From contig CM102284.1 of the NCBI GenBank assembly GCA_046563655.1, positions 8,990,001 to 9,054,000 on the forward strand: a stretch of DNA of 64,000 bases, read 5' to 3'. This document shows positions 6,125 through 42,500 of the stretch, piece by piece (position 1 is the stretch's first letter; each line of letters starts with the position of its first letter). Source of the DNA: Yuukianura sp. NJ FZ-2021. Lineage: Eukaryota. The position numbers and the translations under genes are program-made. The notes under the pieces were generated by a model, which was given only the letters and a program-made list of their open reading frames with translations, was not told the DNA's origin and did not search any database.

Positions 6125-6178
6125 CCTAACCTAACCTAACCTAACCTAACCAATCCTAACCTAACCTAACCTAACCTA
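6125..6178 (+). repeat. Interstitial (CCTAA)n = (TTAGG)n telomere-like tract
   Basis: About 10 CCTAA units with one interruption. Confidence 0.9.
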
Positions 6179-7080
6179 TTTCTCGAGCAGACTGCTCGAA
6201 GAATATCCTGGTATTTCTCGAGCAGACTGCTCGAAGAATATCCTGGTATTTCCCGAGCAGACTGCTCGAAGAATATCCTGGAATTTCTCGAGCAGACTGC
6301 TCGAGAATTATCCTGGTATTTCTCGAGCAGACTGCTCGAGAATTATCCTGGTATTTCTCGAGCAGACTGCTCGAAGAATATCCTGGTATTTCCCGAGCAG
6401 ACTGCTCGAAGAATATCCTGGTATTTCTCGAGCAGACTGCTCGAGAATTATCCTGGTATTTCTCGAGCAGACTGCTCGAAGAATATCCTGGTATTTCTCG
6501 AGCAGACTGCTCGAAGAATATCCTGGTATTTCCCGAGCAGACTGCTCGAAGAATATCCTGGTATTTCTCGAGCAGACTGCTCGAAGAATATCCTGGTATT
6601 TCTCGAGCAGACTGCTCGAAGAATATCCTGGTATTTCCCGAGCAGACTGCTCGAAGAATATCCTGGTATTTCTCGAGCAGACTGCTCGAGAATTATCCTG
6701 GTATTTCTCGAGCAGACTGCTCGAGAATTATCCTGGTATTTCTCGAGCAGACTGCTCGAAGAATATCCTGGTATTTCTCGAGCAGACTGCTCGAAGAATA
6801 TCCTGGTATTTCCCGAGCAGACTGCTCGAAGAATATCCTGGTATTTCTCGAGCAGACTGCTCGAGAATTATCCTGGTATTTCTCGAGCAGACTGCTCGAG
6901 AATTATCCTGGTATTTTTCGAGCAGACTGCTCGAGAATTATCCTGGTATTTTTCGAGCAGACTGCTCGAAAAATATCCTGGTATTTTTCGAGCAGACTGC
7001 TCGAGAATTATCCTGGTATTTCTCGAGCAGACTGCTCGAGAATTATCCTGGGATTTCTCGAGCAGTCTGCTCGAGAAAAA
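6179..7080. repeat. 35-bp tandem satellite, ~26 copies, with palindromic core
   Basis: Unit TTTCTCGAGCAGACTGCTCGAAGAATATCCTGGTA with variants GAGAATTA and TCCCGAG; exact 35-bp period (6181, 6216, 6251 ... 7056); core CTCGAGCAG-A-CTGCTCGA(G). Confidence 0.97.
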
Positions 7081-8861
7081 ACCGAAAAAATAATCATCTA
7101 AATCACTGCTCTTTTGTTATTTTGGCCTTCTCCCGCTCCCCTGACTCCTACGCTGTCTCCCTCCCGCGTAAAATTCAAAAGAATGAAAATTTCGAAAATT
7201 ACAACCCCTCTGAAAATTACGTAACTTACGTACGTAAGTTACGTATGTTACAGGACGTAAGTTACAGCCTTCGAACCCTGAATTTAAATAATGTTATACA
7301 AAAATTTAAAATTTGTGTTGAAAAACGAAATTCGGAGATTTTTGTTTCTGTTAGTACTTCGATCATGTTTTGAAAATTTCAAAATACCAGCAGATCGAAG
7401 TATTAATTAAATAAAAAGTTTTTTCTTTTCTCGGTTTTTTTTTTTGAAATTAATGAAGATGGTGAGACATGGATTGCATGGCATGCTCGGATTTGAGAAA
7501 AAGAAAAGTAAAAAGTTTATCAAAATTTAATTCTGGACTTCATTTCACGTCTTCCGCCTTTTCAACAAAAGTTTCTATTTTCGAAAACTTCACTTTTTTA
7601 CATTTCAACTTTCTTTATTAAATTACTATTCGAAGCGCGAGTTAAAAAGTCTTTCTTAGAGAAGATTTTGAAACTTTTTGTGAAAAATTGAAGCGTCGGA
7701 TCCACGCAAAGCAAATTAACACGTCCTTGCTAAAAAAAAAAGTGAAAGCTTGAGAAAAAAAAAGATTGAAGGCATTTTTTTTTCATTAGTGAGTTTGTGC
7801 TACGTTAATAATTTAATAGTACTTGAAATGAAATTGGTCGGAAGTGAATTTAGTACAGGACTAAGCATAAGATATGCTCTGTTTCTATCCGAATTTGGTG
7901 AAATTGAACACGACTAAAAGGCAAAATTGGAAACCGCCTTGACAGGTTTGGTTTGAGGTTTTTGGCATCAGTGGGCTTGGCTCACCTCCAGATTTCACAC
8001 TTAACAAGATCCAGGAGACAATCAAGTGTCCAAATCTGAAATCTCATAGCATTTTACTTGCACTTTTACAAAATCTACGACTAGGACATTATTACAGCCC
8101 TCAATTCAGCCAAAGTTCGACGTCAAAATGAACTGAATTGGTGAAAGTTGCAGTCTATGGTGCAACTTTCTTTAAATTATTAATGCAAAACATGTTTTAC
8201 GTCTCGTTACCATTGACTTAATGTAAATTCCTAGGTAATGTTAACGTAATTGCGTTAATGTTACTTTAATTAAGAATGCAGTTGATTAGTTTCGACGCCA
8301 CTTTAAGCTTTTCCGCACTAGAAAGGTGGCTGACTTAAGGCGGAGGCCGCTGCATGTACCTCTTTTGCTTTGTGAAAACAATTAGCAGAACTTTGCCGTA
8401 CTTCATCCATCAGCTGATCTTATTCATGAAAAGAGTAAACAAGAAAGCAAACAGTGTCAGGGGTTTCTTTTTTAATTAGTACCTAAGTTCTTGATTAATA
8501 GTCCTCACGATTAATTGTTAACGTTTGTTCCTCGTTAGCAGTAGCACGTCACCCGGCCTATAGCCAATCGCATCAACCAAGGTCAAGAGAGAAATACAAA
8601 ATGTGACCGTTGTATCTATCAGCTGTTTGAGGTCGGTGACAAGGCAAGGACAACTGACAGATCAAGGTCAAGTATCTTCGGCAGAAGGGAAGTCGAGGTC
8701 AGTTATGTAAGTAAGACTAAGATTAGTTAGACAATTAAGAAGGTCGTTCTGTAGTAATTCATCTACAGGGTTAGCTTTATAGCTGTCGTATCACTTTCAC
8801 TCTATCACTGGCTGTATCAGTCGCTCCCTGTCGTATTTGGTTGGACAGTTGTCAGGATTCC

Positions 8862-18200: not shown

Positions 18201-19613
18201 TCAATGCGAAAGGTAAATTTCAAAGTTAAAGGTCAATGTCAAAGGTCAATGTTTACCTGACTAAGGGAACGCTGTGCCAACCAAACTTTGAGTAACTTGA
18301 TAGCATCACAAACTGACTGAGATTTCGTGATTGATTCCAGTATTTCATGTGATGAGTGGAACAGCATGTCATGAAGTATGCTCTGATTGTAAGCAGGAGT
18401 TGGAGCACCTAAAAAGTAGAAAGTTTTTGAAAGTTTGATTTGGAAAATATTTTTTTAAAAAGATTATCCTGTACCTGTCTCTTCCCCTTCGAGTGTTGTC
18501 CCGAGAAAGTAGTCTGCTCTGACGTTGTTACGAGTTGGAGCTAAGCGATTAACTGGAAACTTGTCAAAAGACTGCGGTAGAATAAAGTGAATTCGAACAA
18601 ACAGCAGTTTCTTGAACTTGATGAAAACTGAAAGAATTGGTTTGAGTGGATCTCCGTTGAAGTAGGAAAACTTAACGTCGTCACCCAAATTTCTCAGTTT
18701 CTTGGCAACATATGCCACGTAGAGGGCTCTCTTGTAGTGATAAACGTGATTCAGTATGTCCGTCTTGTGGAAGAGACTCTGCAAACAGCCAATAAATCAT
18801 GAATCACTAATGGATTTTGTAGTTTTGAATATCGAAGATCTTACCGATGGCATTTCTACTGCAATGTCAAGGGCTGACAGCTTGCCCACGGCAGTATTTG
18901 TACACCAAGATCCAATTTCTTGAATTGACTCGGGCTTTGACCATTGGAAAGTGCTTTTATCCGCCCGTTTAGGATTGATGTCAGATGGAAACGGAAGTTT
19001 GATGTCGCCCAACAATTTCTTACAGGAGTTTAACTGGAAAGAATAACAAAAAAGTTAAAAAATTTGGTCCATGAGCGATTCTAATAACAAACAAGAAAAT
19101 TTGAAGAATTTGAAAATGCTTAAATCTCACAGGGTACGACTTCGATGGCTTTGAAGTGTCCAGTAGAGTCCTGAATCCGGTCAGCCATTCCTGGATTTTA
19201 ACTCGTACTTTTGATTTCACGAGGACTTCACTCAGTAACTCATCAATCTAGAACACAGAGATGAATGATTGAAAGTTAATTAACAACTGAATTCATGATT
19301 TATTGATTTATCGTACCTGAAAACGGTACAAGTTCGACTGGCCCAGAACTTCCGATTCTTGCAGCTCCTTGATCTGTCTCGACGACAATTTCGGATTTCC
19401 TTTAGCATCTAGCTCAACACCTTTTCGCTTCCGTTTCTTCTTCTTCGTTTTAGTAGCCGTACCGGCTGATGTCGCCGAAAACATATCCCCGTCGTCGTCT
19501 AATTCTGCTTCATCGTCCGACTCCGATCCACTGTCCATGTCATCCACTTCCATCCTTTCGTCTTCGTCATCCTCCACCGAACTTCCAACATCGTCATTTT
19601 CCCAATCCATCAT
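15298..19613 (-). CDS. NOL6: Nucleolar protein 6 (Nrap/Utp22)
   Basis: Acidic N terminus; YHYKRALY, APTPAYNQS, LLKVWLAQR, FWGEKSLLRRFMDGTLTESV, LESSGKWPDDIQAI, RLAKRWIASH and VGFDPV motifs; multi-exon. Confidence 0.93.
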
Positions 19614-20571: not shown

Positions 20572-21962
20572 TCAGAATCTCCCGCCATTTTTTGGCGGTT
20601 GAGTGCTCGGAGGCAGAGTGGAATAAGGTGGTGGAGGATCAGAATACATCGGTGGAGGTGCCGAAGGAGCGTAGGGCAGTTGCTGCTGGCCAAAATCCGG
20701 CTCAACCGGAAGTGGAGGCAGTGGACGGGCACTGGGTCCTTGGTTTTCGTAGCGCGGAGCTTGAGCAGTAGCAGTGGAACGCTGTGGACGGTTTGGAATG
20801 TTGGTTTGAGCAGACAGCAAAGGTTGAGTGACGCTTGTATTGTGGATGTTGACAATAGCAGTACCCCTGGGGTTGTTCGTAGTAATGACAGTAGTTCTAC
20901 TTGGTCGGACTCCAGAAGGTGCTGCTGGACGGGGTCCCTGGGAACCAATTCGGACATTGTTGACGATTCCATCGGGCGGAAGTAGGACAGTGGACGGTCC
21001 ATGGACATTCGGACGCGGCCGTTCCGGACTTGAACACAAGTAGATAATTCCATTGAGCACAAACAAAACCTGAAATGATAATCAACTAATTGATCTAAAG
21101 CTGATTAGTTTTTGAATAAGTGTTTTAACTATTCTTACCCCCAAAGCGATCTTGATTTCCAGAAACTGACATCCGCGTCGACGCAGGGCAGCCAGTCCAT
21201 CGTAAGCCAAGCATGACGGATACTTTTGTTCCCAAAACGTAAAAGCTTCCAGGAGCAAAGTAGTTCCGCTTACAGTCAATCCAAAACACCAGATGCACTT
21301 GTAGCACAAGTACTAAAATGAAATATTTCAACATGCAAAATTAAACATTTACGTTTTTTTAATGAAACGTTCTTACGCAACAACAATCCCCGATTTTAGT
21401 GCAGAAAAGAGCTGCCAGTATAGATTCCGCAACTACCAAGCATGTCATGACTATGGCAAAAGTGTCAGCTTCAGTAAACATCTCTGGAGGAGTGAACGTA
21501 TATGTGTACATTGTCAGTCCAACACATATGATTCCAACGAACTGAAAATCAAACAATTTTTAATTAGAATCAGCACATTTTTGTTATCACACGCTCTGAG
21601 AACTACTTTTCGTGTTCACTGACTTACCAAGTTGCAAACCTTGATCTTCCAGAAGGCTATTGCCATGTTGTATTGTTATTCTCGTGCAATTGAACTGAAA
21701 AACAATCAAATTCGTCACATGCATTAGATGCAACTGAACTGCAACTAAAATTATGAACACAATCCAAATCAAGGACGACCACGGAAGTATCAGAACTAGA
21801 ACACTTTATGAATTATACTGTGTATCGTCCATTATACATATACGCCCGTAGACTAATCTCAAACTCCCAGTTTTGTCAACACTTTTATACTGACTAGGAG
21901 ACTGACTCTTATACTCGCTACCGAATCTTGATTTCACATGTAAAAACCGTGGATATAAAAAA
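20572..21962 (-). CDS. Multi-pass (about 4 TM) membrane protein with Pro-rich PPxY tail; 5' end uncertain
   Basis: Hydrophobic exons at ~21630-21795, 21375-21542 and 21138-21310; last exon contains SAPPPMYSDPPPPY; start codon not resolved. Confidence 0.6.
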
Positions 21963-29084: not shown

Positions 29085-31827
29085 TTAGTTAGCGCCGGAG
29101 TCTTCTAAAGTGCTAATGGTTGAACTATTGGCATTGAGGAATTCAGTGTACTTCTTCTCCTGGGCCTTGTACAACTTCTCCAGTTTCTTGACCGATGACT
29201 TCGTCAGCACATTTCCAGCAGCATCATGTGTTGGGAACCCCTTCTCATCAAATGCACTGTACTTCTCTCCCTCTCCAGGAATCTTGAACATCTCCGATGG
29301 TGGAATTCGCTTCTGCGCCTCTCTCTCCATTTGGGCTTTGAGTAATTCCTGTTTCTTCTTTTCATTTTGAACACGCAGTTCCTCCTCCATCTTCTCTCGG
29401 AGTTCCCGCTCCTGGACCATCGCTTCTTTACCGACATACTTGACCACTGGAGGACAACCTGCAAGTCATTTCAAAGTATACGGAACAGTATCAATTAGTA
29501 ATTGCGGTGTCAATTAGTTAACGTCTAAAAAGTTAGTCTGACCTTCATGATCTTCCAACCGAACTCCAAGATCAGGCAACTTTTCATCCCGGAGTAAATC
29601 GCATTCCTTCAAAATTGAACTTTTCAGAGAGAGATTTTCAATTGAGCGAGCTGTTGTGCGAACTTTCTCACGAAAGTCAGACAAAACTTCGACGAAAGGC
29701 AAAACAATCTCTTCCGTGTCCACTCCAGCTCCAACTCCTTCTTCCTGTTTCCGAAAACCAAAGGAATCTTCCTCCTGGGAAGAAATTACACCAAAGATTC
29801 TCAGGATTTTCGTGATGAACCTAAAAAGTAATAAAAAAGGTGACATTTTAGCAAATGCTGACAAACTTAGCTTTGTAAATTTTAGCAAGACTTTGTTTTA
29901 TTAACTTACACTGCAGCACTTCTGAGTAAAGGTGCGTTGACTGGCTGTTTCCGACCTTTGTGTGTCTGGACATACACATTGGCTTCACCAATGAGATCCT
30001 TGAGAACAAACATGGCACTTTTCGTGTCAATGTTATCACAGAGAGCAAGATGAACTCCACGCTTGACCAGGGAAAGGCAATTGGAAAACTTGAGGTCATC
30101 TTCTGTCCATTTCGGAAACTTATTGCTTCCTCGCAACGCATCTTTGACATTCAGGAAGAATTCTTGAATTTGTTTCTCCAGTTGAATCGCTGTAAGCATT
30201 CCACTGGGACTGAAACAGAATACATTTCAAAATTCTAAATTTCAAAAATTCAAAAAATAATCTTGTTTTTGAAAATTTTCAGATTTTGTACCTGTAGTCA
30301 AGTGTGTCTTTCCAAGAGTGAAGCAGAAAAGTAAGACGAAGTTGAGTAGCAGTGTACTGCTGCAGAGCATCTTTGATAGTGATGAAATTTTTCAGTGATT
30401 TGGACATTTTGCATCCAGAAATCGTAAGATGTCCGGAATGCAGGAAATATCGAACCCAGGAATCTTTTTCAAAAAATGCTTCACTCTGAGCAATTTCGTT
30501 CTCGTGATGTGGAAACTTCAGGTCCACTCCACCTGAAAAACAATCAGTGATTTGAAACTTATCTGTTTTTAATTAGTTAATCGATTAATTGAGCAACTGA
30601 TGCTGACCAGTATGAATATCCAGGGTTTCTCCAACAATTGCACTTGCCATTGCAGAGCACTCGATGTGCCATCCAGGTCGACCTTTGCCCCAAGGGGAAT
30701 CCCATGACGGCTCTCCAACTTTTGATTTTTTCCATAAAGCAAAATCAGCAGATGATTTCTTCTCGTCTTGTTTGGAATTTGACAGTTCACCTTAAAAACC
30801 AATGAAAGTTAACGATTCTGTTTGGAAATTCAAAAATGAAGTTTCGAATTTCGAAACGTTTCAAAATCGTAAGGTATTTCACCTTCGCCTTCCTGAAGCG
30901 CTTGAACGTTTCCGATCGCTTCAGGAACTAGTTTCCCGTAAGTGTGAAATCCCGCAGCGGTGTATGCAGTAGTGTCAAAGTAGACGGACCCGTTAGAAGC
31001 ATAGGCATAGCCATTGTTGATAATTTGCGTGACAAAGGTCACAATCTCTGGAACATACTCAGTAACACGCGTGAGTACATCCGGAACTTGGATGTTGAGA
31101 GCCGCCATGTCACTAAAGTACTCATCTTCCCACTGCCTTGCGAACTTGACAAATATTTCATTGTCCAACGGTTGCCGCTTCTCGTTCTCTCCGTATTTCT
31201 TGTCCAGCCACTCCAACAGCACGTCTTTCGCCTCTGCAGCAATCTTGTGACGATGGGCAGCAGAATTGTCTGGATCAAGTTGAATTTCAGTTTCAAAGTC
31301 AGCAAGAAACGACTTCAGTCCACTGAGGATCTTCTCTCTCATGGTCTTCTTGTCTGGGTCGGTTGTCTTCAACGTTTCTTGGACGTACAAATCAATTGCT
31401 TCTGTCGTGTGACTGATGATGTTATGAAGGTCCGCATTTCGTTTCAAGTACTCTTCCAGCAAGTACTCCTGTCGACCTCTCTTGATAATTTTGTCGTCGA
31501 TGTCCGTCACATTCATAACGTAGAAAACGTCATAGCCAAAGTACTGGCTGAAGACTCGGCGCAAAATGTCGAATGAAATGTACGACCGAGCATGACCCAT
31601 ATGCGATGCATCGTAGACAGTTGGACCTAAAATGCAAAGAAACGTCTAAACATTTTTGCAACATTTGAGCTGTGTTAATTTAACACTGTTAAACGTTTGA
31701 ATTTTTTGGCCTTACCACAGCTGTACCATGTAACGCGCTGTCCATTTGGATCAAACGGGACAAATGGTTCCAGTTGTCGTGTCAAGCTGTTGTGTAGTCT
31801 CAAACCACGTTTTGGATTTCCAGCCAT
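29085..31827 (-). CDS. CARS1: Cysteine--tRNA ligase, cytoplasmic
   Basis: [27 protein letters not shown] (HIGH motif), [30 protein letters not shown]. Confidence 0.96.
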
Positions 31828-31829
31828 TT

Positions 31830-32929
31830 CGAACTTTTAGGATATTATGACGATGACAAAACGATTAATACTGGCGTTAATTTATTTCCTTGAGTTTCTT
31901 CCTTCTACCCGAATATCTGGAAGCAAAACAAAATATAAAATTCCACACAATCTCAAACTCACTTCACTCCACCAGACATTTAGCAATAAAAATTACTAAT
32001 ATAAGTCAACAGCTGTCGCTCAAAGCTACCTGTCCTGACCTGTCTTGTTCTTCCAGACTGATTACTGTCTACTGCTGACAATCGTCTCTTTTAAACTACT
32101 CTTAATCAGCGAAGCAAAGTGTAACTTACCAATTTAGTTGCAGCAGATTGTTGACCACTTCGTTCTGTTTACGTTTACTTTCACTGTTTCACTTTCAGTT
32201 TCAATTACTTTTACTGCCACTCTTCCAGGAATTTTAATGAAATGAATGACGAAAAGCGAAAGTGTGAATTTTTTACAGTTACAAACCGGAAGAATTCAAA
32301 GAATTTTAATTTAACAGGTGAGTAAGTCACGTGACATTTGCGCAGTGAATTTTAGGTTCGTTCACACTAGCGCCTCATACTAAATGTAGTTAACTTTTAG
32401 AAGGCCTCAGCAGCTTAGTTTATTAATAGTAATTAGTAAATTAATTACTAATTAGCAAAATTTAATTACTGTATTGTAGTTAGTGATAGCAGATTAACAA
32501 CTATTTCATAGCTCAAATCACAGTTAAATTCTTATTGTTTTTAAAAGTCTCAAAGCGGCCGGCCGGCCACGTACTTTAAGCGCGAAATTCAAATTCCATA
32601 TTGTCAACTAATCAAACTAGTAATTTGTTATTTTTTTCTTGAAAACTTCGAACTTGTGGAATTGCGAAAACAAAAACTGATCAGTTGTCAATTTTTTTTT
32701 TCAGTTTAAATTCTACACTAAAAGAAGTTGAAGTCAAAATTTTTTGTGTATTTGGGTCAGGTCAATCAAGGTCACGAGTTAGGATCTCCGTTCGGTGTCA
32801 AAAGAGACAGCTGGAAACTTACGTTTACGAAACCTCCATATTTTACTGTACCCATTGATTATCCTGGGCTGGAGAACTCAATTGGCTCAAATTGTGAAGA
32901 AATCCTGTGAAAACGAACAACAATCAACA
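31830..32929. promoter_or_regulatory. Divergent (head-to-head) promoter region between CARS1 and SCFD1/PPCS
   Basis: Start codons face away from each other ~1.1 kb apart; position-based inference only. Confidence 0.45.
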
Positions 32930-35900
32930 ATGTCGAATTTACGAGAGAAGCAAATTGGTAAATCAATTAGTAAAGTAAATTCTAAGATTAATTGAAGTAG
33001 CTAATAGTCTCGCGCTCTCTTTGGTCGTTTCGTCCGATACTCTCAGAATGTCATTTTAGATGTCTGTCATTGAAACCCCAACCGAAATTATGTTAAAATT
33101 GAACTACCAATTTATTGTTCAGTTAACGCCTTCGAATAATTTAGGTTCTTCAGCAGGCTCTCGTCATCAACTGTCCAGGAAATTGAGCGAAGTGGATCAA
33201 CGCTGGGAAAGTTTCTTCCAAGAAATTCAGGCACCGCAAAACTACGAAACCGACATCGCAAGGCTTCAGCAATTCATCAAATCACTTCCGGCTACAGCCA
33301 AGGTCGTTCTTGTCTCCAGCGGTGGAACGACAGTTCCACTGGAACAATTCACCGTTCGCTTCGTCGATAACTTCAGTTCTGGAACAAGAGGGGCCGCCTC
33401 AGCCGAAGTGTTTCTCGAAAAGGGCTATCATGTCATTTTCCTCTACCGTCACAAGAGCCTGCTTCCCTTCGGCCGCCATATTGGAAATCCTCTGGACATT
33501 CTGGAATTGCACTGCTCCAACTCCTCCGATACTTCCAGCATTCGTGTCAAAAGTTCAGAACTGGCCAATACCAAGCTGATGCTCCAGAAGTACGAGCAGT
33601 TCAAGCCATCATGTCTCCTCATTCCTTATGTCACCCTCGGCGACTACTTGTGGCTGCTCAGAGGAATCTCAGGGGAGTTGGGTCAACTTGGTCCAAGGGT
33701 CATGATGTACTTGGCTGCTGCTGTTTCAGACTTTTACGTTCCAAAGGCTTCTCTTCCGGAACACAAGATCCAGTCCACAGAAGAACCAAGTATCCACTTC
33801 TCTCTGGTTCCCAAGATGCTCAAACCATTGACACATGAGTGGGCTCCAATGGCTTTTATCGTCTCATTTAAACTAGAAACTGACGAGACTTTACTTCTAA
33901 GTAAGGCTACTGGAGCCCTCAAGAAGTACAATCACAACATTGTCATTGGAAATTTACTGACGACCAGGAAGAAGACAGTGACGATGGTGGAGAAAGATGG
34001 GACGGTGACGAAAATTGACAATCCAGATGAATCTCAGGATATAGAAATCCATATTGTACAGGAGCTGATCAAGAAACACGACGATTACATTGGACAAATC
34101 GGTGACAAGCCGACCACTTCCGACTGAAATTCGACATTCGACATCCACTTTCCGCAAAATTTGTCACAAATTTTGTTAGTTTTTAGCACCGCTTTCCCCA
34201 AATTTGTCACAAATTTTTGGCACTTTTGTTAGTTTTTAGCGCCACTTTCCGCAAAAGTCACAAATTTTGTTAGTTTTTAGCAATTAGTAATTGGAAAATA
34301 AATAAAATAAAAATGGTGCTGGGACTTTTTGATTTCTGAGTGGTCGGTCGTGTGTCACTGACACAAAATTGTAAAAGAGAGCGCGAGATTGGTAGGTTAG
34401 TGTTAACTCAATTAATCTAACTAAAAACTAATTAACTTTAATTAATTAATCTAATTAAAAACTAATTAACTTTTGTTTTTATGTTGCAGTTAGCGTCAAG
34501 CAAATGCTGAATCTGAATTCGACTAACCAGAAACACAGCGAGCCGGTTTGGAAAATTCTCGTTTTTGATCGGTTCGGACAAGATGTACTCACAGCCCTGC
34601 TTTCCGTGCATGAACTTAGGCAAACTGGTGTTACCCTGCATGTGTAAGTGTTAATTAACTTGATTAATTAGTTAATTAACTCAAATTAAAGTTAAATTTC
34701 GTTTTTGATGTATTTTCAGCCTCCTGCACTCCGAGAGAGAACATATCCCTGATGTTCCAGCAGTATATTTTTGCATTCCATCTGAAGACAATGTGGATAG
34801 AATTTGTCGTGATTTGCAATCCAGTTTGTACGATAATTACTTTCTCAATTTCATGACTCCTATTCCGAGGCAGCAAATTGAAGATTTAGCATCTGCAGCT
34901 TGGCAATCCAATTCCGGCAATTCTATTCAAAAAGTAAGAAAAAGAAATTTCACAAAATTTTAGAAAATTTTCAAGAATTCATCTTTGTATTCTGATTTTT
35001 GATTGATTCGTTTGTGTTCCTGTAGGTTTACGACCAATACCTCAATTTCATTTCGTTAGAATCCGATTTCTTTGTGCTACGAAATCAAGATGCTGACCAT
35101 ATTTCATTCTACTGTAAGTAAATTTTTGAATTTTGGAATAGAACAATTTACTTACTTTACTAACAAATACTAATCTGTGTTTGTTTCCAGCGCTGAATCG
35201 AGGTCAGGTCAAAGACACCGAGATGGATGCGATGCTGGACAACATAGTTGAAGGTCTATTTTCTGTTTTTGCAACTTTGGGTGTTATTCCGGTCATTCGA
35301 TCCCCAAGGGGGAATGCTGCTCAGCATGTTGCAGAGAAATTGGATAAAAAGATTAGAGACAACACGAGAGATCCCAGGAACTCACTTTTCTCTACAGATC
35401 CAATGGCATCCGGACAGTATACGTGAGAACCACTTTTCAAAATGAGCATGATTTTTAGAAAAATTGAATTTTTCAAGTTTGTTTGAACATTTAGAATTCA
35501 GCGGCCTCTTCTCATAATTTATGACCGTGGTATGGACCTGACCACTCCACTGCACCATACGTGGACATATCAAGCTCTGGCCCATGATGTCCTTGACCTC
35601 CACTTGAACCAAATCAAGTTCACTGACGAAGCTCCTGCGCAGTCAACCAGTCGACATGTCCCGAAGTCCCGAACGCATGACCTGGACGACCGCAAAGACT
35701 TTTTCTGGGCAATGCACCGCGGCAGTCCCTTTCCAACTACGGCGGAAGCGATTCAGGGAGAACTGGAAGAGTACAGGAAGTCAGAAGACGATGTTAAGCG
35801 CCTCAAAGCCACAATGGTAAGTAGTTCAACGTAATATGGTCAAAAACAAATTGGTCAAAAGGTAAGAAGATCAACCACAAGGAAACTTAGGCTAAACAAA

Positions 35901-37412
35901 CCCAACCTGTTAATTGTATTTGTTGACATTTTCACTTTTTGACCAAATTGTTTTGACCATTTCACATGCTACGGATAACCTGTTTATTTAATTAAATAAA
36001 GTTTGTGATTAAGTAATTAATTAATTAACTTTTTCCTGTGTTAGGGTCTGGATGGAAACGATATGCCAGCTGAAATTGGGTCGGACATACTGAACGACAA
36101 TACTGAGAAATTGACTTCAGCAATTACGAGTCTACCGCAACTGCTGGAGAGAAAGCGACTACTGGATGCTCATACGTCCATAGCCACCGGTAACAAAATT
36201 CTCATAGATTTTCATAAAAAAAATCTTAAATTATTCTTAGTTGACACAGTTTTTGGTTTGGATTTTTTTTAGCAATTTTGAAACAAATCAAAGATCGGAA
36301 GCTGGACACATTTTTTGAGCTGGAGACTAAGCTGATGAGTAGAGCAGCGCTGGAAAGAGGAGTGCTCGACGTTTTACTGGATCCTGACATGGGGCTGCCT
36401 GAAGACAAAATGAGATTCTTCCTAATTTATTACCTCATGGGCCAAGTCGAAATGTCAAAGGTCAGATTCTCTAAATTTTTGTATTTGTGCTTGTTTTTGT
36501 GTGATTTTGATCTTTGTTTTAAAATTTTGTGCAGAGTGAGCTGGAGCAATTTACTTCTGCGTTGGAGAGTGCTGGATGTGATTTAGGAGCTATCGCCTTT
36601 GTGAAGAAATGGATGTAAGAAGTATACTAGAATTTTGAATTTCTAATTTCTGGAAATTTCGAAATTTTTTGTGAAAATATGGAGTGAATTTTTGTTTTGT
36701 TCGGTTTTAGATCTTATAGCAAAATGGCGTCAGTCCAAACATCTCAGTCTACGTTTAGTACCTACAACAAATCCAGCATGTTTTCCAAACTGGTCACTGG
36801 CTCTTCGTTTTTGATGGAGGGCGTCAGAAATCTAGTTGTGAAGAGACAAGTAACTGAAAAGTGTTAATTAGATTAATTATTCTTGAAACTAATTAAACTT
36901 CTGTTGGATTTCCAGAACTTGCCAATTACTCGAATGACAGAGGAACTCATGGAGGGGAAAACGTCGCAAGAGACGGAGGATTTCAAGTACTACGATCCCA
37001 AAGTTCTGAAGCCCGGTGCTACTGCTCCACCCAAAGCCACTTACCAAGAAGCAATTGTCTTTGTAGTTGGTGGGGGAAACTACATGGAGTATCAGAATTT
37101 AGTGGATTCTTGCAAGGTAAACAATAAGAATGAATTAAAAAGTAAAGTAAGGTAAAAATAGTTTTAAAAAGCTATTCTAAGGAGTCAACTGTGAATTTGA
37201 TTTACGTGTGATAATTTTTCAGCCTAAAACTGGTGCTGGTGGTGGTCCTCCTAAGAAAATCACTTATGGATGCACAACGCTAATAAATGCTAAACAATTT
37301 CTTCAACAGGTAAGCCAATTCAGAAACTCTTAGCTAATTATTTGTGAATTGTAATAACTATTGACTTTTTTCATTCTAACAGTTATCATCACTTGGTCAA
37401 GAAATGAAATAA
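32930..37412 (+). CDS. SCFD1: Sec1 family domain-containing protein 1 (Sly1)
   Basis: Exon 1 MSNLREKQI (donor 32958) joins 34490 [10 protein letters not shown]...[15 protein letters not shown]...[50 protein letters not shown]; stop TAA 37410-37412. Confidence 0.95.
33060..34127 (+). CDS. PPCS: Phosphopantothenate--cysteine ligase, single exon nested in SCFD1 intron 1; may begin at acceptor 33145
   Basis: [68 protein letters not shown] cluster at 34297-34311. Confidence 0.95.
34144..34282 (+). repeat. Degenerate ~45-bp tandem repeat (x3) in the PPCS 3' UTR
   Basis: CCACTTTCCGCAAAA(TTT)GTCACAAATTTTGTTAGTTTTTAGC-like unit repeated three times. Confidence 0.75.
35836..35960. repeat. Intronic imperfect inverted repeat (MITE-like hairpin)
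   Basis: ATGGTCAAAAACAAATTGGTCAAAA ... TTTTGACCAAATTGTTTTGACCAT. Confidence 0.65.
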
Positions 37413-37850: not shown

Positions 37851-39525
37851 AAATTTTGACTATTAGCTTAGGTTATGGTTGTGTTTTGAGTACAAGAGGC
37901 TGGGGTAAGTGGGGTTGGCGAGTCATTTGGTGTAGGAAAGGAGTAGTGTTTGGGAGTGTATCGCAAGAGGAGTCGAAGAAGTGACTCTGATTAGCACTCT
38001 AGTACATGCAAGAGGAGATTAACACGAAAAGGAAAGGGAAGAACCATCATCCTCATATCTTTTCAGTCATCCTCCCGCATACTCTTCTTAAGTTATCCTC
38101 AATTAATACTAATTTAACAACATGAGAACACAGGGATCAGCAGTAGTCCAGAACAGTGTCCACTGACCACACGGACCAACCAACTTTAATTGGAAAAGCA
38201 GGCAAACGGAATACAACTAACAGAAACCACAAGGATTTGTCTTTGTTCTTTCAGTTTCCTTTTGTCCCCGGCCAATCACACGACGAAAGTGCGTAAGAAT
38301 AGGCGAGTAGATTTCTTTCGGAACGAGGTCAACGTCGGGGTCACCGTCAACTGAAGTGTCTTGTTACCCAGATTTACCCGGTAAGTGATCTTAAGCACCC
38401 TTAAGTGCCACATCTTACGAAACGAAATCAAAACGTTTCTGAGTTACAGCTGTGCTGGTGTATTGTTTTGATTGGTCGGTTACGAAACAAAACAAGTGAT
38501 TAATCATTAATCACAAGTAATCATTGTATCATTGTGTAACTGGTGTCAATTGATGACCCTTGAAATCATAATTTTATGAGGTCATTTATCACATAAGATG
38601 AGCATCAAGCAGTTACATTCGGGTGACAATTGACGATGACAAAGGAACAAAGACTCTTCTGCGGTTGATTCATCTTGGTTTTATTGATGACAATTATCAT
38701 TATGACGTTTCTTCGCCACACTTAAATGGATCTAATGTGCTACAGAATTCATTTGACACTTAGATTATCGACCTTGAACTTGCTAATAGCATCATAGTTT
38801 ATGACTAATTATTAATTGTGAAAGAAAAACGTAATGTTTTTGTTTATTTGACAGGAGCAGTACTACTGGAAGGAAGTGTTCGTAGAATCCAATTGCCTCT
38901 TAATCGGATGACGTATCAACTATCGGTGTTATTCATCCTCTTATGAATTTGAATGGGAAGTAATCACAGCTCGAGCTAAATCCACTTCAGAGCAATTCGC
39001 TGATACAAGCAAGGCTTCTGCCGTGACAATTTTTGGATTGACTGTCATGCGTCATCGGACTGCGGTGTTTTGTCAGCGATTGTGCATCGGAATTCCGTGA
39101 ATCCTTCCAGCCTTTTCATTTCGTCACTCATCATATAACACCTTGTCCAACTACTCGACCACCACAGATCATCACCAACTGAAGTTTGTCACTTCCTGTT
39201 TGCTGACCAATCACCAACTGACTATTGACACACAAGATTACTCCAGTTATCCAACTTTTACAGCACTTCCAGAACAACCGTAGTAGACACTTCTACCACT
39301 CCGGTTTATCTTATCTGTTTGTCTATTGGGTTATTGGACACGAAGTGGCAGTGACCAGCTCAGCCCTCCCGTCGACAACGTTTTTCCTCAGTTTTCAGTG
39401 TGAACAACCTCGCACATCGCTTTTTTCAACATTTAATCTACGCTAAACTTGCTCCAGTCTCTGGACTACTAAAAGTGACATCTTAAGTGTCCAGTGTCAA
39501 AAGTGATCATATCAATTAGTTCATC

Positions 39526-42500
39526 ATGCGTGAATTCAAGGTCGTCGTACTGGGCAGTGGCGGAGTAGGGAAAAGTGCTCTGACAGTACAATTCGTCTCA
39601 GGGTGCTTCATGGAAAAGTATGATCCAACTATTGAAGATTTCTATCGCAAGGAGATTGAGGTGGACGGGTCACCAAGTGTACTGGAAATACTGGATACTG
39701 CTGGAACAGAACAATTTGCCTCCATGAGAGACTTGTACATAAAGAATGGGCAGGGATTCCTCGTCGTGTACTCAATTACTAATCATCAGACGTTCCAAGA
39801 TATCAAAACAATGAAGGAACAAATCAGTCGGGTCAAGGGAGCAGACCGTGTGCCTTTACTACTAGTCGGAAACAAAGTAAGTAACAAAAACGTTTCTTTT
39901 TCGACAAAATTTTAGCCATTTTTGTTCCATTTTTAGCTCAAATCGATTCTTTTTTATGATTTAATCTCTCATAACGGATTTTTCTGCACGTTTTCTTTTT
40001 GTAAACACGCAAAGCGTCGTGCAACCGTTTAATCCAAAAGCAAAACGAAAAATCCTTGGTTCTAGACTCACATTTTTGGTAATAACTTTAAGGTTTAGGC
40101 AACAGTTGCAAAATTTTTGCGATGAGATGAGAATTTAACACTCTTAAGCATCAGATGATGAAATTGTAAGCACAAGGTCCTTGATGCTGCTTAATTGGGA
40201 GTGTAGGAATGTTGTTGTTATTGAACATAGCATTTTAGTCCAAATATTGTTCAGTTAGGCAAGTTGAAGGTGCAAAATGTAGAGAATGTGATGGACATCA
40301 TTGCAATTAAGGATTTTGACTATTTTATTTGACAGTGAATCACACATCTTCTCTCCTAAGAGGTGATTTAACTAAACCGGTTTTCGCACTAAATTGACCA
40401 AAGATTTTTAATTTGCAAGCTTTTTAACAATCATCATCTGCATTCTGCAACTAAACCGTTTTTTTTCGTTGCAAAATCGTTAATCATTTGGATTTAAATT
40501 TTAATAGACACCGACGCCATTTACATTTTTGACATTTTTTAACTCGGTGGATTTTAAATCGAAGTGCAGATTTAAAGAAGAAAAAATTCTAAACGGCAGT
40601 AAACAACGAAACACGAAAAATCTCTTTTTTTTTATATATATAAAAATAAAGTAAAGAATTTGTATTTGTATTTTTTGGTTAGAAACGCAAAAAAAATCTT
40701 CTTGCAAAAAATTGAGATGAATTTATAAAAGTTGGGTTGTTGGGATGTGGCGTGTTTTAGCCTATTTTGAATGCAATTTGGCGTTACAAGATTCATTGTC
40801 AATGGAAATTGGATATCTTCTCTATCCAAAGTCGTTTGTGCTTTTTGATTAGATTTTGTGAGTAAGAAGGAGAATCTGTTTGGATGTTGTAAGATCTTTT
40901 ACCGCTTGAGATGCAGAAAGTGTCAAAGTTAATTAAGAGCGTATCTTCTTTTTGCAAGGGGATGATGACGACGGAAGATGTTGTGTATCTGAGTTATCTG
41001 AGTAAAAGTGGGCCCACTAATCATGTCAACTAATCCTCCGAGGACCCCTATAGCTCATGTCCCACATCACATCCCCATTCAAACACAGATCATCACTTAA
41101 ATTCCACTAAAAACTTAACGGCACATTTATAATCTACGCTTTTTCTTGTGTTCTAAAACGGATCCGCAGAGGAGTAATCCTTTCAAGCCTGATTAATTGT
41201 AATTCCTCTGCCATGGGATTTGAACATGAACTGCTAAAAAATTTTAACTTGAAAAAAATTGACAAAAGAGGCATGTGCTCTTTACAGACTTTTATGAAGT
41301 CTTACATTGGAAGTTGGTTTGAGAAATTTCGATTTTCAAAACAAAATTTTGTGGTGCTTCTTACTTTTTTAATCAAACAGAAATCAATGCCGTCAAACTT
41401 TTCCGAAATGGAGTCCAAATTTTGCCGTTTTTGTGAAAATATTTAGTTTTTTGATGAAAGTGTACCATGATTGAATTTCCTGGATTTTGACTAAATTTTC
41501 GGGTAGAATCGCCTTCGACATTTGTTTTCCGGAAATTCTGTTTTTTGGAAAAGCTAAAAGTAAACGAGTTTGTTCGTTTTTCATGGAAATGTTGCAGAAA
41601 AGGGAGCGCCAATTGCTAGGAAATTCCTCTGTGTCATCTCCATTCATACTCCTCTTTTTTTCATTTGTGCTAAAAAGCACAAACAACAACAACCCACACA
41701 TAGACTGTGTTTTCGTTTAAAAAGTGGTTCAAATGTGGTCAAAATTCGTATAGTTATGGTGGTTTTTAGTGTTGCTGGAAGTGTAAAAGTACAAAGTTCT
41801 TGCTAACTTTGTAATTCTTGTTGTTATTTTAAGTTTTTAGAGTTGAACTGCTTGTTGAACACCACAAACGCTTCCGGTTGTTCTTTGATTAAAATTGTTC
41901 TTCTGCTGGTACTTAACACAAAGAGGAAGCTTTTAACTTTTTAGTTTTTATTGTTAACATATAAAAAAAAACACAAAGATAAATTTTGAGAGTTCATGCT
42001 TTTTTTTTTGTCAAAATTTTGATGGAGATGCTCTTTGTTTCTCTACAATTTCTTTTTGTGCGTGTTTCTTTTTAGTTTTGAACAAATTGCATAACATAAA
42101 AGTTGAATTTGAGTTGTTTTTAATAGGGCAATGGTTTTCTTGTTCATTGATGCACTTACATGGTTTGATTAACCATTTAACCACGATTATGAAAATATCG
42201 AAAGTTAGTGTTAAATTATAGTGCTAAATTGTAAAGATTTTGGAGGGAATGAGGAATGATGGCCTTCATTTTGTGGTTGTTTTGTGAAACAAGAGTTGTA
42301 GTGCTAAAAAGTAGAAAGGAATACACGGTTGGTGGTTTTTGGTTTGTGAATCGATAATAAGGTGATTCAGACTGCTCTTGGGAAGATTCAGTTTTTGGCA
42401 AGAGGTGTTGGGTAGGAGGGGCACAGCTAGGCAAAAAATATACATTGCATATATAAAAAAGTGTATATTATATATTTTGGATGTTGAAATTTCCACTAAA

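Follow-up and report, generated by a model that had tools for sequence, protein, structure and literature searches.

A PPCS gene nested in the first coding intron of SCFD1 may share the first exon of its host and is bracketed by a predicted RNA stem

We analysed a 64,000-nt window of eukaryotic DNA (contig CM102284.1 of assembly GCA_046563655.1, positions 8,990,001 to 9,054,000 of the forward strand), which has a G+C content of about 38% and short introns, and in which positions are numbered from the first letter. It contains SCFD1, the gene for Sly1, and within the first coding intron of SCFD1, on the same strand, lies a whole intronless open reading frame (ORF) for PPCS. The original prediction had proposed that these two genes share a promoter and a first coding exon. 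The anatomy and coordinates that it gave for the pair were confirmed: exon 1 ends in phase 1 with its donor at 32957/32958, exon 2 starts at 34490, the complete PPCS ORF is inside intron 1, and the AATAAA cluster within that intron comprises three signals. The features of the locus, all on the + strand, are as follows.

32930-32957, + strand: first coding exon of SCFD1/Sly1, with its ATG at 32930, encoding MSNLREKQI plus a G and ending in phase 1
32958-34489, + strand: SCFD1 intron 1, 1532 nt
33060-34127 (with stop codon), + strand: stop-to-stop PPCS ORF, intronless, 355 amino acids (aa) from the ATG at 33060
34150-34296, + strand: PPCS 3' untranslated region (UTR), with three direct repeats of about 43-51 nt
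34297-34311, + strand: three overlapping AATAAA polyadenylation (poly(A)) signals, starting at 34297, 34301 and 34306
34490-37333, + strand: SCFD1 exons 2 to last (several exons), ending at the stop codon

The host protein is similar to Sly1 proteins over its whole length, including the N-terminal LREKQI motif; by tblastn it is collinear with residues 1-628 of the 634 residues of Rhodnius Slh (P0122) across 12 exons, and the join of exon 1 to exon 2 at 34490 matches the N-terminus of the same protein (MATLREKQIGALKQMLNLN). An N-terminal motif of the form [LIM]R[ED].Q, as in the window SCFD1, is present in 25 of 120 Sly1 relatives, and the relatives carry PF00995 (Sec1 family) as a precomputed annotation. 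The exon-1 donor, a GT at 32958, scores 6.1 with the donor matrix described below (96.8th percentile); if it is left unspliced, the exon-1 frame runs on to a stop at 32993-32995, giving an ORF of 21 codons. The other resolved SCFD1 introns measure 66-106 nt, against 1532 nt for intron 1.

The nested ORF matches the Pfam DFP family (PF04127) at 63.8 bits (cut-off 22, E = 2.3e-17) and is similar over its full length to eukaryotic PPCS proteins, with 5056 relatives at E<=0.001 and a best E of 5e-107. Among named relatives the closest, with 56% identity, come from two springtails, Orchesella cincta and Allacma fusca, and no relative in the protein collection searched exceeds 57%. All 86 invariant columns of a 10-sequence PPCS alignment are kept in the window protein. 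By homology, the ORF is a phosphopantothenate-cysteine ligase. The direct repeats of its 3' UTR each hold the palindrome AAATTTGTCACAAATTT.

The same nesting was found in a relative, the check by synteny that had been proposed with the original prediction. Metagenome contig L001 (3542 nt) carries a PPCS 72% identical to that of the window, and about 230 nt beyond it come exon 2 (SVKQMLNLN) and seven more exons of SCFD1; L001 is the only one of 80 fetched metagenome loci with SCFD1 beside PPCS. Four-fold degenerate sites of the window and L001 are identical at only 20-38%, which amounts to saturation, and since the nesting is common to both despite this, it must predate a deep split. The introns of the two loci could not be aligned except for a poly(A) block, AATAAA...TGGTnnTGGGA, the only conserved block there; the intronic poly(A) site is therefore under constraint. 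Judged by these sequences, the nesting of PPCS in SCFD1 is old and conserved. The PPCS 3' UTR of L001 is much shorter and lacks the direct repeats seen in the window.

To locate the beginning of the PPCS coding sequence, codons were scored by log-odds, with 2598 supported codons as the training set and non-coding trinucleotides as the contrast. The stretch 33060-33143 scores -5.31, a value as low in only 1 of 302 coding windows and equalled or exceeded by 76% of 794 open non-coding windows. The running sum of the score is lowest at 33150-33152 and climbs from 33153 onwards. Upstream of 33156 three of 32 codons are TTA, against two of 323 downstream (p=0.006), and the G+C content of third codon positions (GC3) is 0.34 upstream and 0.54 downstream. 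In 88 relatives the tail that precedes the conserved W..F[FY] is at most 26 aa long (median 4 aa); in the window protein it would be 48 aa from the ATG at 33060, 38 aa from the ATG at 33090, and 25 aa if exon 1 is joined at 33157. Just downstream of 33157, the peptide QLSRKLS is identical in L001 across four synonymous differences, indicating constraint at the protein level. Codon usage, TTA count, tail length and a branch-point motif agree and point to a start of the constrained PPCS coding sequence at 33153-33157. If coding begins near 33157, the AUG has to come from an upstream exon, and the only + strand ATGs between 32385 and 33059 are that of SCFD1 at 32930 and that of a mini-ORF at 33048. 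The following elements lie at this boundary.

33048-33059, + strand: mini-ORF ATG TCA TTT TAG, adjoining the ATG at 33060; its TTTTAG is acceptor-like
33123-33127, + strand: TTAAC branch-point-like motif, 30 nt upstream of acceptor 33156
33151-33156, + strand: CAGCAG, two acceptors in tandem (33153 and 33156) that each match the phase of exon 1; 33156 has the best score of the candidates
33157-34127, + strand: proposed coding part of the PPCS terminal exon, a candidate giving a 332-aa product with exon 1

Splice-site matrices were built from 17-21 acceptors and 15-16 donors of the window genes SCFD1, Nrap and TAF6 and of the L001 SCFD1; true acceptors, each left out in turn, score 2.8-15. Acceptor 33156 (TTCTTCAGCAG/GC) scores 6.9-7.1, at the 97.6th percentile of 3641 AGs, and is in phase. 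Its score falls within the range of true acceptors, and the 5' end of the inserted exon thus has an in-frame acceptor, as in the Su(var)3-9/eIF2gamma unit; this speaks for the presence of such a site and not for its use. When the matrix was made without the window SCFD1 sites (n=10), 33156 ranked 11th among the 267 AGs in 32960-37330, and the top 16 of this ranking include 11 SCFD1 acceptors, nine resolved by homology and two inferred (36044 and 36710); the decoy rate is about 1%. The phase alone is unremarkable, four of the seven AGs between 33122 and 33192 being in phase. A motif of the form YTRAY lies upstream of 14 of 21 true acceptors against a background of 44%, and none was found upstream of the acceptors at 33059 and 33122.

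The original prediction had placed the junction at 33144/33145. This acceptor is indeed in frame with exon 1 and would give 336 aa, but it scores -2.1, below every true acceptor; the predicted exon boundary was therefore close to where the sequence evidence puts it, with the best acceptor 12 nt further downstream, at 33156/33157. The early stop foreseen for acceptor 33122, which scores 0.7-1.7, was borne out, as a join with exon 1 stops after 14 codons. Exon 1 joined at acceptor 33059 (TTTTAG/ATG, 0.9-1.8, below all true acceptors) stops after 13 codons. Two ways of placing a small intron here were tried and rejected: a PPCS-specific 5' exon ending at donor 33092 (score -0.5) is in phase 2 and incompatible with the phase-1 acceptors, and donor 33066 with acceptor 33122 is in frame and retains the least coding-like codons. 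A local inverted repeat of 17 nt (88% complementary) links 32952-32968, around the exon-1 donor, to 33097-33113, about 45 nt upstream of 33156; it is absent from the global minimum-energy fold.

The PPCS unit is enclosed by a second, much longer inverted repeat, with these two arms.

32985-33047, + strand: left arm of the predicted stem
34335-34418, + strand: right arm of the predicted stem, its 5' part overlapping a GU-rich stretch downstream of the poly(A) signals

The core of the stem is a perfect 15-mer at 33008-33022 and 34374-34388, of which the window holds only these two copies; among 100 shuffles, a single one gave two matches. Pairing 32964-33059 with 34318-34448 gives a predicted duplex energy of -69.3 kcal/mol. 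None of 697 other windows paired with the left arm was as low (mean -32.8, sd 6.6, minimum -52.9), and of 594 control pairs drawn at random with equal spacing (mean -36.0, sd 8.8) a single one was. This control, 19498-19599 with 20852-21029 at -69.5 kcal/mol, may itself form a long-range inverted repeat. When the 1591 nt from 32930 to 34520 are folded, 53 long-range pairs survive and the core has pair probabilities of 0.81-1.0. The complementary boxes flank the proximal terminal exon, in the manner of Drosophila Nmnat, and the predicted loop takes in the sequence from the ATG at 33060 to a point shortly after the AATAAA cluster. In the paired state the donor would lie 27 nt and the exon-2 acceptor 71 nt from the stem, leaving an effective intron of about 100 nt, the usual size here. 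We considered whether the repeat could be the ends of a transposon, possibly a recent one. The presence of the core in only two copies in the window speaks against this, as does the age of the nesting, which exceeds synonymous saturation: had a neutral repeat been present since the nesting arose, it would be expected to have decayed, as synonymous sites have, so the stem is either selected or recent.

In the reading that we tentatively favour, PPCS serves the SCFD1 unit as an alternative 3'-terminal exon, to which exon 1 is spliced at 33157; the use of this acceptor, a common promoter and any role of the stem are what we infer. Transcription would start at the SCFD1 promoter, and the phase-1 donor at 32957/32958 would have two partner acceptors. 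Splicing to the proximal one at 33156/33157, with cleavage after the AATAAA cluster, would yield the PPCS mRNA and its 332-aa product, and splicing to the distal one at 34489/34490 would yield SCFD1. Formation of the stem would have to wait until the polymerase is beyond the PPCS poly(A) signals. The stem would then loop out the whole PPCS unit, overlap the GU-rich element downstream of the signals and cut the distance from donor to acceptor from 1532 nt to about 100 nt, favouring read-through and SCFD1 splicing; were the 199-nt proximal intron removed first, the left arm would be lost and the poly(A) site freed. A stem that lets host transcripts pass a poly(A) site on their own strand would make sense under all of the rival readings too. 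Taken as a single package, the proposal that one promoter and a 9-codon exon feed two unrelated essential proteins, that the stem of about 60 bp acts as a co-transcriptional timer (PPCS if spliced before 34335 is reached, SCFD1 otherwise), and that this arrangement has been held since before the synonymous sites of the window and L001 became saturated, is rather unlikely to be right in every part. The original prediction had also drawn a regulatory link between coenzyme A biosynthesis and trafficking from the endoplasmic reticulum to the Golgi, which rests on nothing in the sequence.

Several observations weigh against a shared first exon. The frame is open from the ATG at 33060 to 33156, as a separate start would need, an event expected by chance in about one fifth of non-coding 28-codon windows by a rough estimate; the first 11 codons from this ATG score mildly positive (+2.95), and at TTTTAG/ATG an acceptor-like site directly adjoins a start codon. 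The matrices were built from only 10-21 sites, and two decoy AGs within coding exons, at 34763 and 33319, outscore 33156. L001 starts 12 nt downstream of the position equivalent to 33156 and covers neither the acceptor nor the 5' arm of the stem. A Sly1-like N-terminus was found in none of 120 PPCS relatives, and L002 (positions 1-2096), whose PPCS is a 57% relative, has its own ATG in the context caaaATGg. Because of these last two findings the arrangement is specific to this lineage, and the shared exon, if used, would be lineage-specific as well. L002 has no upstream ATG in the 103 nt before its PPCS ATG and no SCFD1 within about 1 kb downstream, and its PPCS reads as an independent gene or mRNA.

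A further argument of the original prediction was that there is little room for a separate PPCS promoter. The donor and the ATG at 33060 are indeed only 102 nt apart, but the argument is weak, because SCFD1 probably has one or more 5' UTR introns and PPCS may have an internal start site. Upstream of the SCFD1 ATG lies one prominent donor.

32318-32329, + strand: donor-like site CAG/GTGAGTAAG, score 7.2, 98.3rd percentile of 3590 GTs

A non-coding leader exon of SCFD1 (exon 0) may end at this site, which is followed by strong acceptors at 32400, 32704 and 32760 (6.2-9.8), and 546 nt before the SCFD1 ATG (32384-32930) are free of ATGs. From these features, the 5' UTR of SCFD1 probably contains one or more introns, and the SCFD1 start site probably lies over 600 nt upstream. 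The sequence GGGTCAG/GTCAATCAA at 32754-32768, presumably within the SCFD1 5' UTR, combines an acceptor (9.8) and a donor (8.4) at one position and resembles a recursive splice site.

The strongest rival, a real possibility that we rate below a shared exon, is that PPCS is an independently transcribed nested gene with its own start site in 32958-33059 or just after, translated from the ATG at 33060 or 33090. The stem would then serve the host only, masking the nested poly(A) site in SCFD1 pre-mRNA and looping PPCS out. Same-strand nested genes in arthropods mostly have promoters of their own, and in L002, the more distant relative, PPCS does have an ATG of its own. From the ATG at 33060, which directly follows an in-frame stop, the frame is open, and TCATTT at 33051-33056 resembles an initiator (Inr), judged by the general Inr consensus; a start at 33053 would leave a leader of 7 nt before that ATG, whose context is poor (T at -3), the ATG at 33090 having A at -3. 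Such a gene would have to accommodate a first segment, 33060-33152, that is non-coding-like in codon usage, TTA count and GC3, and a tail of 38-48 aa, longer than in all 88 relatives. It would also make the strong in-phase acceptor at 33156 a coincidence, with a chance of about 3-4% as estimated from the decoy rate.

The objections from composition and tail length apply equally to a scheme on the pattern of the cholinergic locus, where the shared exon is non-coding. Here both genes would use one non-coding leader exon, which might end at 32317 and would be spliced either to the SCFD1 ATG exon or to 33059/33060, so that the ATG at 33060 becomes the first AUG of the PPCS mRNA. The donor at 32318, the three acceptors that follow it and the ATG-free stretch, which fits 5' UTR exons and introns, are all compatible with this, as are the juxtaposed TTTTAG/ATG and the precedent of VAChT/ChAT, as it appears in excerpts of PMC3053374. 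We nevertheless consider it improbable, the acceptor at 33059 scoring below all 17-21 true acceptors and having no YTRAY upstream.

Less probable still is that intron retention and intronic polyadenylation yield an mRNA on which ribosomes re-initiate at PPCS, having translated the 21-codon exon-1 ORF and the 3-codon mini-ORF. The stop of the exon-1 frame at 32993-32995 and the mini-ORF TAG at 33057-33059, directly before the ATG, would suit it. Two upstream ORFs and the strong context of the SCFD1 start would be inefficient for an essential enzyme, the stem would oppose the poly(A) site on exactly these transcripts, and composition and tail length again stand in the way. An exon 0 with an ATG at 32242, in phase 1 at donor 32318, could also be joined in frame to 33157, at a level expected by coincidence, and spliced-leader trans-splicing of PPCS, which we considered and which is not known from hexapods, would supply no AUG to the exon at 33157.

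A shared first exon of SCFD1 and PPCS would belong to a known kind of arrangement. In winged insects and silverfish, a single Su(var)3-9 exon lies in a phase-1 intron of eIF2gamma, and excerpts of PMC1435931 describe a common promoter, identical mRNA 5' ends, alternative splicing at the 3' side and unrelated proteins that share an N-terminus; retroposition followed by activation of a cryptic acceptor is the suggested origin. Here too a phase-1 intron of a housekeeping host contains, on the same strand, an unrelated gene in the form of one large intronless exon that carries its own poly(A) signals. The two cases differ in the genes involved, in the nine codons shared here against about 80 there, and in that the present one is known from genomic sequence. 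In springtails Su(var)3-9 is unfused according to the same excerpts, whereas the nested PPCS/SCFD1 pair is probably from a springtail or a near relative; a bracketing RNA stem is predicted for PPCS, and none is described for Su(var)3-9/eIF2gamma in those portions of PMC1435931.

At the cholinergic locus, VAChT lies within the first ChAT intron, and multiple promoters and alternative splicing yield both mRNAs (excerpts of PMC3053374). PPCS is likewise nested in the first intron of its host, here the first coding one, but VAChT and ChAT belong to one pathway whereas PPCS and SCFD1 are unrelated. Exon 1 moreover carries the ATG of the host, so that a productive PPCS mRNA can arise only by an in-frame junction or by exon skipping. 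The closest parallel for the stem is intron 4 of Drosophila Nmnat, where, in the parts of PMC2724269 drawn on here, complementary boxes surround the proximal acceptor to an internal terminal exon with a poly(A) site; pairing shortens the way to the distal acceptor and puts the proximal one at a disadvantage, and the stem was proven by disruptive and compensatory mutants. The predicted arms around PPCS also flank proximal acceptor, terminal exon and poly(A) site. In Nmnat the outcomes are isoforms of one protein, whereas here they would be two unrelated proteins, and the PPCS stem, which is predicted only, spans a whole foreign gene with a loop of about 1290 nt. This predicted bracketing stem is the new twist of the PPCS/SCFD1 locus. 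In the literature searched, supplements lying outside it, we found no report of PPCS nested in SCFD1.

If the shared exon is used, the locus would be a second, independent natural case of unrelated housekeeping genes fused in one alternatively spliced unit with a shared N-terminus, and in a hexapod lineage other than that of Su(var)3-9/eIF2gamma. The stem suggests how a compact genome that splices by recognition of short introns may tolerate a poly(A)-bearing gene in one of them. Even if PPCS has its own start site, the stem offers a testable answer to how the host reads through a nested poly(A) site on the same strand.

Upstream of SCFD1, a gene for cysteinyl-tRNA synthetase (30282-31828, minus strand, ATG near 31828) is arranged head to head with it. 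About 400-500 nt separate its ATG from the putative SCFD1 leader exon, which suggests a bidirectional promoter. Downstream of SCFD1 lies a Rap-like GTPase gene, whose start codon is directly preceded by an ATG-free stretch of 479 nt (39047-39526). Both this stretch and that of 546 nt before SCFD1 are among the six longest of 918 such gaps in the window, and they may mark long or intron-bearing 5' UTRs. TCTCGCG was tried as a general promoter motif and rejected: it occurs five times in the window, where 2.7 occurrences are expected, and at no other gene start. Elsewhere in the window, a tandem array at 6179-7089 is built of units of about 35 nt on the palindrome TTTCTCGAGCAGACTGCTCGAGAA, and a long ORF that runs across it (6165-7370) gives only sub-threshold or spurious Pfam matches.

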